A stretch of DNA of 64,000 nt from Candidatus Enterousia sp. (GTDB taxonomy: Bacteria; Pseudomonadota; Alphaproteobacteria; Rs-D84), in NCBI GenBank assembly GCA_045546075.1, contig JAZQCF010000017.1:10254-74253 (forward strand), read 5' to 3'. Below are positions 23,740 through 30,522 of the stretch, piece by piece. How positions within the stretch are numbered: the first letter of the stretch is position 1; the number at the start of each line of letters is the position of its first letter. The translations under genes and the position numbers were made by a program. The notes under the pieces were generated by a model. It was not told where the DNA came from and ran no database searches. It saw only the letters and a list, made by a program, of their open reading frames with translations.

Positions 23740-23877
23740 AATTTTCCCTTTATATAGACAGATTTGCCGGGCAATTATACACATATTTTTTTGTAAATGC
23801 AAGTGTTAGTGGCGCAATTAAAAACCCCACCGTTTGCGTTTTATGATGGGGAATTTGGTAAGTCGTTGATTTGTTGT

Positions 23878-24381
23878 TTAATAATTATAGCATTGGCACG
23901 TGCCACCACTGCAATGTGGAGTTTTACACTCTGCGCCAACAATCCCGACACAATCCGCATTTGTTGTGCACTGTTTTGCCGTAACATTAACATCAATCAG
24001 GTTCCATAACAGACAGTTTTCGTCCGTGCCTTGGCCCGGTTCGGCATCCCATTCTACGCACTGCTTATGTGTAACCGTTTTTTCTTGGGATGGTATCGCA
24101 GAAAATGCGGCGCGTGCGGTAATCAGTTTATCGCCGTCATCGTCATAATCAAAATCAACGATGCCCGCATTATAAATCCCGCGTTCACCGATTTGTCCCG
24201 CGGTATCAGTATATGTGACAACGGTTTCGCCGGGTGTATCTTCGTTTGTGCCCGCAACCGGGATTGTTGCCTGGCGCGTGGTATCAACGTACGTTTTTGA
24301 TGTAACGGTTGTATCCGCGAATACTGAATTAATTGCGATTATTGATGCAACCGCACCAATGAATAATGTTTTTTTGCTCAT
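23878..24381 (-). CDS. small secreted protein, paralog family member (167 aa)
   Basis: MSKKTLFIGAVASIIAINSVFADTTVTSKTYVDT..., ENCLLWNL, and a Cys-rich C-terminus. The RBS is AAAGGGGAACATATG. Confidence 0.75.
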   Translation of the reverse strand: MSKKTLFIGAVASIIAINSVFADTTVTSKTYVDTTRQATIPVAGTNEDTPGETVVTYTDTAGQIGERGIYNAGIVDFDYDDDGDKLITARAAFSAIPSQEKTVTHKQCVEWDAEPGQGTDENCLLWNLIDVNVTAKQCTTNADCVGIVGAECKTPHCSGGTCQCYNY

Positions 24382-24411
24382 ATGTTCCCCTTTATTCCTA
24401 TGATTAAAAGT

Positions 24412-24526
24412 GTAACAAAAACGAACGTTTTTGTCCAGTGCTTTTTTGGAAAAAATTATTCAGTAAAATCAACAACAGTAAAGTCCGCAAAATGGGGGGA
24501 CAAAAACGTTCGTTTTTTTTGACCAC
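24412..24526 (-). promoter_or_regulatory. conserved 5' module of the secreted-paralog family, copy 3, with the inner segment inverted relative to copies 1 and 2
   Basis: The outer arms match those of copies 1 and 2 in gene orientation. The junction CGTTTTTGTCCAGTGCTTTTTT is gene-distal in copies 1 and 2 but gene-proximal here (24422-24448). Confidence 0.65.
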
Positions 24527-24571
24527 TGTGGGGCGCGTGAAACCGTGTTTTTTTGGGGATTGTTATATGTT

Positions 24572-24606
24572 TTATAAAAATAAACCCCGTATTTGATACG
24601 GGGTTT
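24572..24606 (-). terminator. Rho-independent terminator of rplM-rpsI
   Basis: AACCCCGTA-TTTGA-TACGGGGTT; on the minus strand it is followed by TATTTTTAT. Confidence 0.7.
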
Positions 24607-24631
24607 GATACTTTCCAAACAAACGTGATGT

Positions 24632-25168
24632 TTAACGTTTGCTGAACTGGGTTGAACGACGTGCCTTGCGGAAACCATAGTGTTTACGTTCGACAACACG
24701 GCTGTCGCGGGTCAAGAACCCGGCCGCCTTTAATGCCGCGCGCAGTTCCGGTTCGTTCTTTTCCAATGCCTTGGAAATACCGTGTTTTACGGCACCCGCC
24801 TGGCCCGACAGGCCGCCACCCATAACCATTACGAATGCGTCATAGGCACCTTCGCGTTTTGTTACCGCAAATGGTTGATTCAAAATCATCTGCAACACCG
24901 GACGGCGGAAATATTCAACCATCGGTTTGTTGTTGATAACAATGTTGCCCTTGCCCGGCATCAAATATACGCGCGCGACAGAATCTTTACGTTTGCCGGT
25001 TGCGTAAATCGCGTTGTTCAATTTTGGGACGCTAACGCTTGCGGTTGTCTTTTTTGTCGCCGCGGTTTTTGTCGCGGTCTTGGCCGTTGTGGTCTTTTTT
25101 GCTGTCGGGGCCGCTTTCTTAGCGGTTGCCGTCGCTTTCTTGACGGTTGTTTTTTTTGCTTCTGTCAT
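24632..25168 (-). CDS. rpsI: 30S ribosomal protein S9 with a Lys/Ala/Thr-rich N-terminal extension
   Basis: The C-terminal 130 aa are canonical S9 (...[19 protein letters not shown]..., ending [11 protein letters not shown]). The first 50 or so aa are AKKTT-type low complexity. Confidence 0.93.
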
Positions 25169-25641
25169 TATTCGCCCCTTTTGTTTTTACGATTGAGTTT
25201 CGCAAAATCAATCACAACCGGATTTTGCGCGGCGTGTTTGTGTTCTGCGCCTGCATACACGTGCAGTTTGGTCAGGCGTTTGTCCGCCAATGCCACCGCC
25301 GTGCGGCGACCCATCATACGCTTAACCGCGTTTTTAACCAACATTGTCGGTTTTTCCGCGCGCATTTGGCCCAATGTGCGTTCTTTGATTCCGCCCGGGT
25401 ATGTTGTGTGCCAATAGAATTTTGTCTTGTCGGCCTTGGTGCCGGACAGTGCCACTTTATCGGCATTGATAATAATCACATGGTCGCCGCAATCCATATT
25501 CGGTGTCCATGTGGCCTTGTTCTTGCCGCGCAGGATGTTCGCGGTATATGCCGCCAAACGCCCTAACGTGCAATCGGTCGCGTCAATCAAATACCATTTG
25601 GCATCCAATTCACACTTTTTTAACGATTTTGTCGTTGCCAT
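25168..25641 (-). CDS. rplM: 50S ribosomal protein L13
   Basis: 157-aa ORF: [33 protein letters not shown].... Sits in the classic rplM-rpsI arrangement. Confidence 0.95.
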
Positions 25642-25809
25642 TTTTGTTTTACCTTTGTTTGTTATTAAAAGTTCGCCCTATTATGTCGCAACCGCGCAGA
25701 AAAGTCAAGAAAAATCGATATGGTATTATGATACCGTAAAAAACAAAAAACTTGATAATGGCGGTTATCTTTGATAACCTTTGGTTTGTTCGTATTATGG
25801 AGTATCAAA

Positions 25810-28212
25810 ATGGCAACGGATGATATAAAAAAGATTATTGCGCGTGAAGAAAAATGGCAGCGGCGTTGGCGCGATGCGCGTGCGTTTGTGCCGAAAAACG
25901 ATGGGTCAAAACCGCGTTTCTATAATTTGGTAGAATTTCCGTTCTTGTCCGGTGCCGGATTGCATGCGGGTCATATGATGAACTATACCGGGATGGATGT
26001 TTTGGCGCGCTATCGCCGGCATCGTGGTTATGACGTGTTGTTTCCAATGGGTTTTGATGCGATGGGGATTGCAGGTGAACATTATGCCAAGAAAATCGGT
26101 CGGCACCCGGCGGATGTTGCGCGCGATTTGGTAAAATCTTATTCAACAATGATAGACCGTGTCGGTTGGTCGGTTGACCCGGAAACACGCGTTGCGACAT
26201 CTGATCCAGAATATATCAAATGGACCCAGTGGATGTTTATTCAGTTTTTCAAGGCGGGTTTGGCATATAAATCTGAATTGCCGATGAATTGGTGTCCAGA
26301 ATGCCGAACAACATATACCAACGAAGAATTGGAAGACAACAAATGTCCACGTTGCCACAGTATCATAGAAAAAAAGACTAAAATGCAATGGAATCTGCGC
26401 CTGTCGCGGTATGCGGATAAATTGCTGGATGGGTTAAAGGATGTGGATTTTGATGAACGGATTAAAAAAGATGAAATAAACCTGATTGGAAAATCGCACG
26501 GCGCGGATGTAGATTTTCGTGTCGGCGACGATATTATGACGGTCTATACCACGCGCGTGGATACCATATTTGGTGTGACGTTTTGTGTTATTGCGCCGGA
26601 ACATAAACTGTTACAGAAATGGTTGGATACGGGCCGCATAAAAAATGCGGATGCTGTGCGGGCATACATTAAACAATCGGCGGCAAAAACAGAAATAGAA
26701 CGCACGGACGCAACCAAGGAAAAAACAGGAATAAAACTGGATGGCGTAATGGCGATAAATCCGTTCAACGGACGTGAAATTCCAATCTTTACGTCTGATT
26801 ATGTGTTGGTGGATTATGCGTATGGGACAATTATGGCGGTGCCGGCACACGATTCGCGCGATTGGGATTTTGCGAAAAAATTCGGTCTTGAAATAATTCC
26901 GGTTTTGGCCGGTGGCGAACCAGACGCGGTCTGGGAAGGTGATGGGCCGCATATAAATTCGCAATTTTTGGATGGGATGGATAAAGAAACCGCGATTGCA
27001 ACCGCAATAAAATACGGAACCGAACACGGTTTCGCACGCGGAACAACAAAATATAAATTAAAGGATTGGGGTTTCTCGCGCCAGATGTATTGGGGCGAAC
27101 CAATTCCAATGGTTTACTGTGAAAAATGCGGGTGGCAACCAATTCCCGAAGACGAATTGCCGCTGATGCAACCATATATGGAAGACTATAGCCCAACCGA
27201 TATGGGCGAAAGTCCATTGGCGCGTGCGACCGATTGGGTTAAAACGACCTGCCCTTGCTGTGGCGCGCCGGCACAACGTGAAACCGATACTATGCCGGGA
27301 TGGGCGGGTTCTTCGTGGTATTATTTGCGCTATTTGGACCCGAAAAACGACAAAGAGTTTTGTAGCAAAGAACAGATGAAAAATTGGATGCCGGTGACGC
27401 ACTATAACGGCGGACACGAACACAATACGCGGCATTTGATTTATTCCCGGTTTTGGCATCACGCACTGTATGATTTGGGTTTGGTAAATACCCCGGAACC
27501 ATATACCAAGCGGACCGCCCAAGGGTTGCTTATGGGGAATGATGGATATAAAATGTCTAAATCACGCGGAAATGGTTTTATGGTTGCCGATTTAATGGAT
27601 GCGGTTGGTGCCGATGTGGGGCGTGTTGCAGTGTTGTCGTTGGGACCGTGGGAAAACAATGTTGTTTGGACCGATGGTGCGATGGCGGGGGTTCAGCGTT
27701 TCCTGAAACGCGTAGAAAATTTGTCTGATAATTTAACCGATGATGCATTAACACCCGAACAAGATATTTTGGTAAATCGTTTAATTGCCGATGTGACAGA
27801 ACGTTTGGATGGTATGAAATTTAATACGGCGATTTCCGCGATGATGGAATTTATAAATGAATTTCCGGGTGGAAAAATGCCGCGCCGTGCGTACGAGGTT
27901 TTGATTCAAATGCTGAACCCGTTTGCGCCGCATTTGACCGAAGAAATGTGGGAAAAGTTGGGGCATGCGGATATGTTGGTGTTTGAACCGTGGCCGACAT
28001 TCGATGCGTCTAAATTGGTTGAAACAACCGCAACATTTGCGGTGACGGTCAATGGTAAGCGCGTTGCCGAATTTGTCGCGGATTTGAACGCGAACAATGA
28101 AGAATTGATTGCGTTGGCCCGTGCGGCGGCGGGTGCCCGGATTGCCGGCACAGAAATCATTAAAACCATTGTCGTGCCAAAGAAATTGGTGAATTTTGTT
28201 GTAAAGAAATAG
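25810..28212 (+). CDS. leuS: leucine--tRNA ligase
   Basis: ORF trimmed to MATDDIKK after GGAG. Class I motifs are HAGH (HIGH-type) and KMSKS (YKMSKSRGN), with a CP1 editing domain. About 800 aa. Confidence 0.93.
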   Translation: MATDDIKKIIAREEKWQRRWRDARAFVPKNDGSKPRFYNLVEFPFLSGAGLHAGHMMNYTGMDVLARYRRHRGYDVLFPMGFDAMGIAGEHYAKKIGRHPADVARDLVKSYSTMIDRVGWSVDPETRVATSDPEYIKWTQWMFIQFFKAGLAYKSELPMNWCPECRTTYTNEELEDNKCPRCHSIIEKKTKMQWNLRLSRYADKLLDGLKDVDFDERIKKDEINLIGKSHGADVDFRVGDDIMTVYTTRVDTIFGVTFCVIAPEHKLLQKWLDTGRIKNADAVRAYIKQSAAKTEIERTDATKEKTGIKLDGVMAINPFNGREIPIFTSDYVLVDYAYGTIMAVPAHDSRDWDFAKKFGLEIIPVLAGGEPDAVWEGDGPHINSQFLDGMDKETAIATAIKYGTEHGFARGTTKYKLKDWGFSRQMYWGEPIPMVYCEKCGWQPIPEDELPLMQPYMEDYSPTDMGESPLARATDWVKTTCPCCGAPAQRETDTMPGWAGSSWYYLRYLDPKNDKEFCSKEQMKNWMPVTHYNGGHEHNTRHLIYSRFWHHALYDLGLVNTPEPYTKRTAQGLLMGNDGYKMSKSRGNGFMVADLMDAVGADVGRVAVLSLGPWENNVVWTDGAMAGVQRFLKRVENLSDNLTDDALTPEQDILVNRLIADVTERLDGMKFNTAISAMMEFINEFPGGKMPRRAYEVLIQMLNPFAPHLTEEMWEKLGHADMLVFEPWPTFDASKLVETTATFAVTVNGKRVAEFVADLNANNEELIALARAAAGARIAGTEIIKTIVVPKKLVNFVVKK

Positions 28213-28237
28213 TGGTTAGTGATTAGTGGTTAGTAAA
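28210..28237 (+). repeat. TAGTGRT heptamer array (4 units) starting with the leuS stop codon
   Basis: TAGTGGT TAGTGAT TAGTGGT TAGTAAA; the first TAG is the leuS stop. Confidence 0.85.
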
Positions 28238-28240
28238 CAA

Positions 28241-28300
28241 CCGCCCGGATGTCACCCGCAAAATTTTTTGATTTTGTGGGACCAGACTTTGGGCGTTTTT
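28241..28300 (+). terminator. compound hairpin element plus T-run (member of a repeated hairpin family)
   Basis: CCGCCCGGATGTCACCCGCAAAATTTTTTGATTTTGTGGGACCAGACTTTGGGCG followed by TTTTT. Close copy at 29479-29532; the inner hairpin is also at 6925-6958. Confidence 0.6.
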
Positions 28301-28318
28301 ATTTTTTTGACAGCATTG

Positions 28319-28347
28319 TTGACAATATATATTTTTTGTGCTATATC
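28319..28347 (+). promoter_or_regulatory. sigma70-like promoter (TTGACA-N17-TATATC)
   Basis: TTGACA at 28319-28324 and TATATC at 28342-28347, upstream of the 28381 ATG. Confidence 0.5.
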
Positions 28348-28380
28348 GTATATATGGTCATAAACAAAAAGGAAATAAAA

Positions 28381-28674
28381 ATGACAGATCAAGAAAAGTA
28401 TTTGGATAATATTGATGAATCGACGAGTACGATAAAGTTTCAAAATCGAGTAAGGATTTTAGGGCTTGTGGCTTTTGGGTATTTGGTTTTGATGGGGTTG
28501 GCGAATAACAATAAAACCTTGCACGAAATCAATAAAAATCTTGCCAAGATTCAAAAAGAACTGGAAAGTCGGGGTTCGTTATCAAATGATACTATCGCGT
28601 ATGAAAAGGCCGCGGCTTTATACGATATGGTGCCACGGGTAAAACCTGTATGCAAGCAAGTTAAAGAGAAATAA
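28381..28674 (+). CDS. small single-pass membrane protein carried on the leuS insert (97 aa)
   Basis: ORF 28249-28674 trimmed to MTDQEKYL... after AAGGAAATAAAA. It has one TM (ILGLVAFGYLVLMGLA) and a coiled-coil-like tail. No family recognised. Confidence 0.5.
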   Translation: MTDQEKYLDNIDESTSTIKFQNRVRILGLVAFGYLVLMGLANNNKTLHEINKNLAKIQKELESRGSLSNDTIAYEKAAALYDMVPRVKPVCKQVKEK

Positions 28675-28676
28675 TC

Positions 28677-28727
28677 AAAACCATTGTCGTGCCGAAAAAA
28701 TTGGTGAATTTTGTTGTAAAGAAATAA
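28677..28727 (+). repeat. duplicated copy of the leuS 3' end (right direct repeat)
   Basis: AAAACCATTGTCGTGCCgAAaAAATTGGTGAATTTTGTTGTAAAGAAATAa compared with 28162-28212. Confidence 0.85.
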
Positions 28728-28755
28728 AAAAAACCGCCCAAATGGGCGGTTTTTT
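28726..28755. terminator. bidirectional Rho-independent terminator
   Basis: AAAAAAAA-CCGCCC-AAAT-GGGCGG-TTTTTT. Confidence 0.8.
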
Positions 28756-28767
28756 AATGTCGTTGTC

Positions 28768-29382
28768 TTATCGGGACATTTGGTTTTGCAGTTTGCGTAT
28801 AATCGTCGCTATTTCCGGGGTGACACGAACACCGGCATCCCATACTTTTTCTGCATCATATTGAACGCGCCGTGCTTCTAAATCTTGCACTTTCTGGCCA
28901 AGTAATTTTCTAAAAGTGTTTCGCGCCGTGGTGGACAATAAATCAACCGTATTCCACAACGGGGTGTCCGGGATGATTTCAATGCCGTTTTCGCATTTTT
29001 TCGCGCCTTCTTTTTCCATTCTGTACATTTCTTGTGCCATTATTTTGGCCTGTTGTTCTGGTTTTGTATCGGTATTCCACAATGGGGTATGCGATGCCAG
29101 TGTCAAAGGTTTTTCACGATAAGACAGGCCATATTTTGTGACAACAAAATTACCAGTGCCCTTGATCGGTGACACAGACATCCAATCCCACGGATCCCAT
29201 TCAAGGTGTGTTTTTAATTCTTTTGAAACTTCTGGTTGCCAACGCCAATCCAAGTTTTCGATTTGTATGCGACCAATTGTTATCACGTTCCAATCGGTGG
29301 CTGCGCGAATAACGCGGTTTGGATAATTCAAGACCAGATTTTGCATTTCTTGTTTGATGTTATATTCATGTGTTTGTGCCAT
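28768..29382 (-). CDS. hypothetical protein (204 aa)
   Basis: ORF trimmed to MAQTHEYNIK... after AAGAGGAAAAAAAC, with its own promoter. It contains an internal duplicated TPLWNT motif. No family recognised. Confidence 0.6.
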   Translation of the reverse strand: MAQTHEYNIKQEMQNLVLNYPNRVIRAATDWNVITIGRIQIENLDWRWQPEVSKELKTHLEWDPWDWMSVSPIKGTGNFVVTKYGLSYREKPLTLASHTPLWNTDTKPEQQAKIMAQEMYRMEKEGAKKCENGIEIIPDTPLWNTVDLLSTTARNTFRKLLGQKVQDLEARRVQYDAEKVWDAGVRVTPEIATIIRKLQNQMSR

Positions 29383-29426
29383 GTTTTTTTCCTCTTGGTT
29401 GACAAAATATATTCTAACACAGGCAA

Positions 29427-29454
29427 AATATAGCAAGAATGTTTTTTTTGTCAA
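29427..29454 (-). promoter_or_regulatory. sigma70-like promoter (TTGACA-N16-TATATT)
   Basis: On the minus strand, TTGACA is at 29449-29454 and TATATT at 29427-29432. Confidence 0.55.
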
Positions 29455-29478
29455 GGATATTGTTGCGAAAATAAAAAA

Positions 29479-29540
29479 CGCCCGAATGTCACCCACAAAA
29501 TTTTTAATTTTGTGGGACCCGACTTGGGGCGGTTATTTTT
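29479..29540 (-). terminator. compound hairpin element (second copy) acting as terminator of 29539-30504
   Basis: CGCCCGAATGTCACCCACAAAATTTTTAATTTTGTGGGACCCGACTTGGGGCGG is flanked by an A-run and a T-run, starting right after the stop codon of the upstream minus-strand gene. Confidence 0.6.
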
Positions 29541-30504
29541 AGATTGCAAGTGCAGGATTTTTATAGCTAAACCAATTTGACACCATTTGTTGCCGCAGTA
29601 TTTCTAATTTTTCTATTTGTTCCGGAATTGATTTAGAATCTTCGCCTATTTTTACCGCGGCAATCGGGTCAAGGCATGCCTGGCGCAACCAGTTTAATTG
29701 TTCTTTTGGGGGTTCTTCTTGGTGGTGTCGTTGGAAATTTTCAGCCGCCCATTTTGCACGTAACGTTTTATTTATATTTATTTGATGCCTTATTGCACAC
29801 ATAATTTTGTGATTTGGGTGCGGAATATGGTCTAAAAAATGTTTTAATTCTGTTGGACCATATGTGGCAGAAATAGCGGTCAGTAATACTTGCTCGCTGG
29901 GATTTTTCATTTTTGGGGATTTTAAAATCTGGATACCGTGTTCCTTGGCTGCGGCCAATTTTACCCTTTCGCACAGTGGGTTTGGTAAATAATTAATCCC
30001 ATCCAGACCATATTTTGTGGTGTGGATGATTTGTTCTTTAATTGTTGGTTTTTTGCGTTTTTTGATAAGTTCGGGACTTTCGGTAGAACAGCGCAACGCC
30101 AATTCCCACTGTTTATTGGTTGGATGCGCAAGGCCTTTTATGGCCTGGCCTGCGGTTGTAAGTGCCGCGGTAATAACTTCATTGGAGGGGTTGTGTAAAA
30201 GCCCCAAATATGACCCATAGGTATCTTGGCGTAATGCGGCTATTTTAACAAAATCTGGGATTTCGTTTTCGGCAAGAATATCAAGAAAGTAAGGAAATAC
30301 GGATGAACCGATATATTTAATGCAAAATAACATAAATTCGGGGGTGCATTCTTCCTTGGAAACCAATCCGTTCCAAAGACGGTAATCATGCCATTCACTC
30401 AATCTGTTAAGGCATAGTAGCCGTCCGCCCATTTTGTACCGCCAATATGCCAAATCATACTTTGGCTCAATCGATTTGCGAATTTCGTGTACAATATAAT
30501 CCAT
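29539..30504 (-). CDS. hypothetical protein (321 aa), alpha-helical repeat-like
   Basis: Long ORF with no signal peptide and no motif I can name with confidence. Confidence 0.6.
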   Translation of the reverse strand: MDYIVHEIRKSIEPKYDLAYWRYKMGGRLLCLNRLSEWHDYRLWNGLVSKEECTPEFMLFCIKYIGSSVFPYFLDILAENEIPDFVKIAALRQDTYGSYLGLLHNPSNEVITAALTTAGQAIKGLAHPTNKQWELALRCSTESPELIKKRKKPTIKEQIIHTTKYGLDGINYLPNPLCERVKLAAAKEHGIQILKSPKMKNPSEQVLLTAISATYGPTELKHFLDHIPHPNHKIMCAIRHQININKTLRAKWAAENFQRHHQEEPPKEQLNWLRQACLDPIAAVKIGEDSKSIPEQIEKLEILRQQMVSNWFSYKNPALAI

Positions 30505-30522
30505 ATCTTGGTTGCCCCAGAA

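Follow-up and report, generated by a model that had tools for sequence, protein, structure and literature searches.

How does the end of a conserved gene come to stand twice on one chromosome, with a different gene between the copies? The question is raised by a stretch of 64,000 nt (the window, whose positions are used throughout) of contig JAZQCF010000017.1 from a Candidatus Enterousia genome (GCA_045546075.1). Here the 3' end of leuS, encoding leucine--tRNA ligase (LeuRS), is repeated downstream of a 464-bp insert that contains the gene of a 97-residue protein, here called small97. The arrangement is best explained as a cassette that was probably spread by homologous recombination, with no dedicated integrase. 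The source is a metagenome-assembled genome of 0.97 Mb in 25 contigs, with a host contig (C17) of 94 kb; the 0.97-Mb genome and the ruminant-gut sources agree with the published description of Candidatus Enterousia (PMC12306168).

The locus has the form R1-X-R2. R comprises the last ~60-66 nt of leuS, the stop codon and the terminator. X spans about 360 nt, with a sigma-70-type promoter and a ribosome-binding site in front of small97, the gene of a predicted single-pass membrane protein. Its features, with the gene that follows, are:

25810-28212, plus strand: leuS (leucine--tRNA ligase), intact, ending in R1 with a TAG stop (TIGR00396, 773 bits, cut-off 548)
28152-28212, plus strand: R1, the working leuS 3' end (EIIKTIVVPKKLVNFVVKK, TAG), from the sequence and a repeat search
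28210-28237, plus strand: heptamer array TAGTGGT/TAGTGAT, its first unit supplying the leuS stop codon, from the sequence
28242-28306, plus strand: H1, a compound hairpin terminator (outer GC stem, nested AT-rich stem) and T-run, from the predicted fold
28319-28347, plus strand: promoter of small97, TTGACA at 28319-28324, a 17-nt spacer and TG-extended TATATC at 28342-28347, read from the sequence
28381-28674, plus strand: small97, 97 aa, with AGGA 7 nt before the ATG, from the list of open reading frames (ORFs)
28666-28682, plus strand: junction GAGAAATAATCAAAACC, the end of small97 (E K stop) overlapping the leuS codons E-I-I-K-T in another frame, from comparison of the window with contig L096 and genome G179
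28667-28727, plus strand: R2 (leuS'), an untranslated leuS 3'-end remnant with a TAA stop, from the repeat search and its codon-structured variation
28728-28755, no strand assigned: T1, a simple bidirectional terminator (fold of -18.8 kcal/mol, z -4.7)
28768-29382, minus strand: ds204, a convergent orphan gene of 204 aa from ATG 29382, outside the cassette, from the ORF list

L and G numbers are our handles for the contigs and genomes compared. The longest frame of leuS opens at TTG 25771, with ATG 25810 (800 aa) as the likely start, and the C-terminus of its product agrees with that of 50 relatives in the genus. A preliminary description of this DNA had reported 51-nt direct repeats with 3 mismatches, and rereading gave the same result: 28162-28212 and 28677-28727 differ at CCA/CCG, AAG/AAA and TAG/TAA, and both encode the same 19 residues, KTIVVPKKLVNFVVKK, followed by a stop. 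A repeat search extends the pair to 60 nt at 93% identity (28152-28211 and 28667-28726, including a 29-nt exact stretch), the longer translation of both copies being (E)IIKTIVVPKKLVNFVVKK and a stop. The likeness of R2 to the leuS frame can be traced back to ~28665 (A?A GAA ATH ATH AAA ACC). In related contigs without the heptamer array, the repeat is longer (77 nt, 88%), continuing beyond the stop codon and entering the terminator's left arm, which argues that the duplicated unit is the leuS 3' end together with its stop and terminator.

The hairpin, the TTGACA-N17-TATATC promoter and the 97-aa ORF lie where they had been placed. It had also been claimed that the 3' end of leuS is restored, which is the case as R1 leaves the gene intact, and that the insert lacks an integrase; small97 is its only conserved ORF. 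R1 completes the working leuS, and R2 appears to be a dead remnant which lends small97 its stop codon and terminator. The small97 stop falls within leuS-derived sequence; R2 has no start codon and is closely preceded by an in-frame TAA. A second TTGACA is found at 28307-28312, and the promoter scan lists this neighbour alone because its rule demands a T at the last -10 position. TTGACA is kept in all carriers and in the distant contig L096.

The contigs without a cassette show the two terminators to be alternative forms of one: they share the outer stem, and the compound form has a palindrome nested within its loop. The compound hairpin (in H1 28242-28295, -31.5 kcal/mol, z -2.9, with a T-run next) is found directly 3' of leuS in G067 and L099, which carry no cassette, and the T1-type hairpin directly 3' of leuS in G179, L104-L107 and many other relatives. 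The terminator after the second copy had been proposed as the ancestral leuS form. The presence of the same hairpin after leuS in relatives agrees with this, and T1 would now serve both small97 and the convergent ds204. The nested palindrome reads CCCRCAAAAT...ATTTTGTGGG, and the two forms are allelic at the same position in close relatives (L099:4904-4970). The heptamer array, part of a genome-wide heptamer family, looks like a secondary, fast-changing addition; it is lacking in L042-L044 and L046-L049 and present as a variant in L045.

The arrangement recurs in 11 assemblies: the window, GCA_045591135.1, GCA_045602825.1, five from ENA, two from JGI and one from Logan. All ten further contigs read leuS-TAG-(heptamers)-hairpin-promoter-gene-leuS remnant-terminator, and the small97 relatives in public metagenomes are 77-100% identical. 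The left junction of the remnant is identical in all carriers, and there are six different R2 sequences. The R1 stop is TAG in 11 of 11 cassette-bearing contigs, as against three of 50 empty-site leuS genes. Downstream, the carriers differ: ds204 and a further gene, ds321, follow in the window, whereas L040 and L041 have ds339 there and L042-L047 the gene of a P-type ATPase. An ATPase 97% identical to the latter sits on another contig of the window's genome (G000:C8:40671-41077), pointing to a rearrangement breakpoint at the terminator.

Are there chromosomes without the insert? The preliminary description had proposed comparing filled with empty sites downstream of leuS in relatives, and both forms were found. 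All 50 working leuS ends read from other species of the genus are single copies; 45 end in TAA, and in most a simple GC hairpin follows at once, as after R2. None of the 256 genomes of other species of the genus encodes small97. The LeuRS sequences nearest to that of the window, 98%, 96% and 94% identical, lie on 10, 1 and 17 contigs, respectively, the ten at 98% being from the window's own species, and at every place shown leuS is followed directly by convergent ds204, with no cassette; an exact look-up of the window's LeuRS matched no record. The conspecific contig L099 has flanks 98.6% and 97.8% identical to those of the window and a leuS mostly 96-100% identical, and reads leuS-TAG-compound hairpin-ds204. 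Four more same-species contigs (L100-L103) are empty as L099 is, as are G179 and G092. ds204 is present in the empty-site conspecifics and absent from L040, L041 and G067. The existence of same-species contigs without the cassette means that it is polymorphic within one species, and the insert behaves as the discrete unit of gain and loss that it had been taken for.

Comparison of the window with L040 suggests that this unit also travels. The two cassettes are 95-99% identical, whereas the flanks are 81-85% identical overall and the leuS bodies 55-87% per 100 nt. These two carriers are not each other's nearest relatives. The flanks of L040 are nearest to G067 (88.7%), which is empty (leuS-TAA-hairpin-rpiB), and those of the window are, among the genomes of genus species compared, nearest to G179 (86.6%), which is likewise empty and has the same downstream gene. 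A near-identical cassette in flanks of ~81% identity, with empty nearest relatives on both sides, argues that the cassette has moved between species.

Where the incoming DNA begins can be judged against L099. Mismatches to the window number 1-5 per 250 nt over 25123-26372, rise to 10, 16 and 24 in successive 250-nt bins between 27373 and 28122, and remain high as far as the stop, the last bin before which has 46, including a 21-nt heptamer gap; beyond the cassette, ds204 is 3.6% and the far flank 2.2% diverged. The foreign tract of the window therefore appears to start inside leuS, ~400 nt before the stop (~27600-27800), and to include the cassette. A tract that starts in the body of leuS points to homologous recombination rather than to crossover at a fixed att core, and entry through an integrase core is disfavoured because leuS upstream of the repeat would then have stayed conspecific-like. 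The last ~300-400 nt of leuS (27800-28150) are 92-97% identical in most comparisons within the species group, among carriers and non-carriers alike, although the leuS bodies of these species are 55-90% identical. In this stretch the window is ~10% diverged from its own conspecific. Next to a variable spacer, the leuS end thus has the look of a hot region for recombination; its high identity in most comparisons suggests that recombination is frequent there and blurs the boundaries between species.

A second line of evidence comes from the remnant. The six R2 haplotypes differ by at least 14 changes, of which 12 are at third codon positions, one is stop-to-stop and one is Val to Leu. In the leuS frame 13 of the 14 are silent, against 22% expected (P about 1e-7), and every variant except the Leu also occurs in working leuS alleles of the genus. 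Averaged over pairs, silent differences per silent site (pS) are 0.37 and nonsynonymous differences per nonsynonymous site (pN) 0.006 in R2, compared with a pS of 0-0.08 for small97 on the same contigs. Such almost purely silent variation indicates that R2 sequences have been drawn repeatedly from working leuS alleles. Of 66 pairs of sites, 12 fail the four-gamete test, and they span the whole of R2, which means that crossovers fall inside the 60 nt. The R2 of L042, which is followed by a different terminator, has 10 silent differences from its own R1 (pS 0.82 in cis); as R2 is often unlike the R1 beside it, conversion within the chromosome is insufficient. The simplest reading is that R2 has been replaced repeatedly, wholly or in part, by the leuS end of the genome entered. 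R2 would then be a pseudogene remnant that mimics purifying selection through repeated replacement, which calls for caution in gene calling based on the ratio of nonsynonymous to synonymous substitution rates (dN/dS).

These observations can be joined in one mechanism. RecA-type recombination of imported DNA would use the conserved 3' region of leuS as its left arm and, as its right arm, R2 or the first 14-17 nt of it, which would pair with the leuS end already present in the recipient. With every entry that end would become the new R2, which would account for R2 varying only at silent sites, and recombination of R1 with R2 would remove the cassette cleanly, restoring an ordinary leuS and terminator. 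The genome encodes RecA, ComEC and DprA. Spread of R1-X-R2 along these lines is the explanation we consider probable. Several points weigh against it. The evidence consists of assembled contigs, and natural competence of these uncultured bacteria is suggested by gene content only. With a right arm as short as 14-66 nt at 78-95% identity, and with MutS and MutL also encoded in the genome, such recombination should be inefficient. Left boundaries are hard to place except against the conspecific, which makes part of the entry evidence weak, and the origin of the duplication has two readings side by side (see below).

A variant of this mechanism, doubtful but worth stating, is a recombinase-free, self-flanked cassette. 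RecA would release a 515-bp circle consisting of X and one hybrid repeat, and the circle or linear copies would re-enter the leuS end of any Enterousia. If so, the leuS remnant would be a portable attachment arm, kept gene-like by repeated gain and loss.

Could the duplication instead be a single old scar, left by one ancient illegitimate event and inherited vertically, with frequent loss and conversion of R2 by R1 but no horizontal movement? Such a history would fit the small97 homologue of a distant species, which occupies the same position and has diverged (75% nucleotide identity) about as much as leuS (74%), the junction that is the same everywhere, and the R1 and R2 sites that in some cases agree within a genome. 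It is difficult to reconcile with cassettes 95-99% identical in flanks of ~81% whose nearest relatives both have empty sites, with polymorphism within one species, with R2 sequences often unlike their own R1 (pS up to 0.82 in cis) and with the absence of small97 from 256 species of the genus. We regard this history as unlikely.

The preliminary description had favoured site-specific integration, possibly of a satellite mobilised in trans. In its present form this reading takes the leuS 3' end as the attachment site of an integrase-less 515-bp unit, the circle of which is moved by a recombinase encoded elsewhere or by a helper phage. Direct repeats carrying the 3' end of the target do flank the insert, the gene is restored, empty sites exist, the left junction is the same in all carriers, and R1 always ends in TAG, as if brought by the element. 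The genome has three tyrosine and three serine recombinases, and e14 with its icd-icdC arrangement is a precedent (PMC13626634). However, the six genes lie on C1, C8, C10, C4 and C21, none on C17, and no recombinase was found in the cassette, on the 94-kb contig or on any carrier contig; nor has small97 a relative in viral contigs. The foreign tract begins ~400 nt inside leuS, and variable sites and four-gamete failures are spread over the whole of R2. A second example is also lacking among the duplications checked. BLAST of the genome against itself gave 46 nearby direct-repeat pairs, and of the 18 compared with ORFs of at least 100 aa only the leuS pair covers a long gene's 3' end with its stop codon. 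With one such case in 18 pairs, a general mechanism that duplicates gene 3' ends was rejected, and the locus is better seen as one lineage of one cassette than as the product of a general insertion machine. Gain and loss and movement between species therefore stand from the earlier integration idea. The site-specific mechanism is not supported, given a cassette with no recombinase, a tract starting so far inside leuS and scattered crossovers, and a satellite of this kind is quite improbable.

Selection on R2 itself, were it translated (as a mini-ORF, or by frameshifting out of small97) or needed as a 3' element of the RNA, would explain the near-pure silent variation and the stop that is always kept, be it TAA, TAG or TGA. 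We consider it very unlikely. R2 lacks a start codon, a ribosome-binding site and a -1 slippery site and has the in-frame TAA upstream; a small97-R2 frameshift fusion was rejected on the last two grounds. Furthermore, the distant homologue without R2 still has an intact gene, a search of the region for known RNA families with Rfam gave nothing above the gathering score, and silent divergence at the level seen between species is explained by exchange with working alleles. An assembly artefact, in which two strains were collapsed or chimerically joined at a shared leuS end and which the preliminary description had named as the alternative, might be suspected of a metagenome-assembled genome in 25 contigs with a 29-nt exact stretch in the repeat, but is ruled out for practical purposes: 11 independent assemblies, made by different assemblers from different samples, agree in the order, and six different R2 sequences occur among them.

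To return to spread by homologous recombination, how did the first R-X-R arise? The distant species represented by L096 has a homologue of small97, P0011, at the same position between leuS and rpiB (leuS 74% and the small gene 75% identical in nucleotides to those of the window). Its order is leuS-TAG-heptamers-47-aa ORF-terminator-promoter-small gene-TAA-TCAAAACC-GCCC hairpin, followed by convergent rpiB, and it has no full R2. A 14-mer, AAATAATCAAAACC (28669-28682), spans the stop of the L096 small gene and is identical in the window junction, in the leuS of G179 (E-I-I-K-T) and in other working alleles; the window's genome contains it a single time. AGAAAT at the right junction is likewise common to the window, L096 and the leuS of G179. 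The form seen in L096 may be ancestral, with the 14-nt microhomology joining the small-gene module to a leuS end, or it may be derived, by a 54-nt deletion of an older remnant between AAAACC repeats (28677-28682 and 28730-28735). The 14-17 nt of leuS-like sequence at the end of small97 can regenerate the full duplication upon recombining with a leuS end. The first R-X-R would most likely have come from an illegitimate or short-homology join at AGAAAT or AAATAATCAAAACC, either by homology-facilitated illegitimate recombination (HFIR) or by entry of a circle through a single crossover.

The outcome resembles that of e14 in icd, and the mechanism fits recombination-driven cassette exchange of the HFIR, Campbell and Neisseria kinds. 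According to PMC13626634, where Hill et al. 1989 is cited, e14 (like phage 21) resides in icd of Escherichia coli; it is a prophage of 15 kb that encodes a site-specific integrase and is excised upon SOS induction. There, as here, a housekeeping gene carries the insert in its 3' end and receives a replacement end from it, the downstream remnant (icdC) differs mostly at silent sites, and loss fuses both ends into a working hybrid gene. The present unit differs in measuring 0.46 kb, with one small gene and no recombinase, and in a tract that starts well inside leuS and crossovers scattered along the repeat. For transformable bacteria, HFIR with joins at 3-10 bp is documented in PMC6382021 (citing de Vries and Wackernagel 2002; Meier and Wackernagel 2003). 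It anchors one side by real homology (here leuS) and joins the other at short identity (here AGAAAT or the 14-mer), and it is a RecA-dependent import of foreign DNA without any mobile-element enzyme, as we propose for this cassette. In our case, however, 14-17 nt or the full 60-nt remnant are shared, the event appears repeatable in new hosts, and host sequence is duplicated rather than deleted because the join lies upstream of the end of the anchor. Campbell-type integration of a circle by a single crossover, as with suicide plasmids, gives the same R-X-R product, reversible between the repeats, but the present unit has no known circular form or replicon, and for such a process a substrate of 515 bp would be exceptionally small.

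The minimal mobile elements of Neisseria are reportedly cassettes that are swapped between conserved flanking genes via transformation and homologous recombination. The likeness lies in small cassettes without mobility genes at one site between conserved genes, in alternative and empty forms; the alternative contents here are small97, a 264-aa gene, a 47-aa gene, ds204 and ds321 or ds339 in varying combinations. The difference, and the new twist on known cassette exchange, is that the cassette brings its own right-hand homology, copied from the end of the gene on its left, which makes entry independent of the downstream gene content. Integron cassettes, too, are single-gene units of a few hundred bp, but they have attC sites, need IntI and usually lack a promoter, whereas the present unit has its own. 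No attC-like inverted repeat was found in the insert besides the terminator hairpins, there is no integrase on the contig, and Rfam again gave nothing above threshold. The locus suggests that bacteria whose genome is very small and encodes few enzymes of mobile elements can still exchange single genes across species; as landing homology, the cassette takes along part of a gene that is essential and conserved.

What the cassette delivers is small97, a candidate for a gene that affects fitness at the strain level. All eight haplotypes and P0011 keep the ORF open, and only an in-frame 9-nt indel (DTI) is tolerated. In the three haplotypes for which six frames were printed it is the sole open one; an antisense or alternative frame behind the odd codon-position pattern described below was rejected, as all other frames of these three have stops. 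The product has an acidic N-terminal tail, one predicted hydrophobic membrane helix (~residues 26-41) and a helical C-terminal half; an AlphaFold2 model places helices at residues 3-63 and 70-83, with a low predicted local distance difference test score of 61. Of 38 variable sites, 13, 20 and 5 are at codon positions 1, 2 and 3, respectively. The N-terminal half (28381-28520) holds 33 of them, 29 at positions 1 and 2, and for most pairs pN/pS lies between 1 and 4. Tail and helix change rapidly, through replacement of residues, and in the C-terminal half there is almost no variation, not even at silent sites. The pattern points to diversifying selection, or else to a relaxed constraint, in the tail and helix, albeit from small numbers.

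Relatives of small97 are few. Pfam, PHROGs, PADLOC and NCBIfam gave chance-level matches only, with none to a phage or defence system, and HMMER against 1.84 billion representatives returned the protein's own cluster and P0011 only, the latter with no further relatives found. None was found in viral contigs or in GTDB genome contigs, and among the matches listed in a metagenome scan there was one contig, which was already known. The preliminary description had proposed a search of the genome for other copies of the insert or its ORF; only the heptamers and the hairpin recur, the latter in the following feature:

29473-29540, plus strand: H2, a second compound hairpin copy, between ds204 and ds321, from the repeat search and fold

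The region upstream of ds204 (29383-29545, minus strand), with H2, a TTGACA promoter, a leader and a ribosome-binding site, aligns with that upstream of small97 (28236-28395, plus strand) with a score of 101 against a shuffled mean of 26. This likeness hints at a shared module layout for orphan genes. Common descent is not claimed, because the score comes mostly from the palindromic hairpin and from generic promoter and ribosome-binding signals.

The spacer between leuS and rpiB (window 28213-30522) appears as a whole to be a natural hotspot for the presence and absence of orphan genes in Candidatus Enterousia. Its contents were compared across the window, L079-L082, L096 and L099. It holds only a hairpin in G067, ds204 in G179 and L099, ds339 in G092, a different 264-aa gene for a two-helix membrane protein with its own promoter together with ds204 in G199, the 47-aa ORF and the small97 homologue in L096, and small97, ds204 and ds321 in the window. 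The last of these (29539-30504, minus strand) is an orphan absent from the same-species contigs, with a weak match to phrog_17056, a phage protein family (E 5.6e-8). A further strain-level indel lies beside rpsI: 23816-24622, comprising a secreted-protein gene (23878-24381) and its upstream region, is missing from L099, in flanks 98-99% identical.

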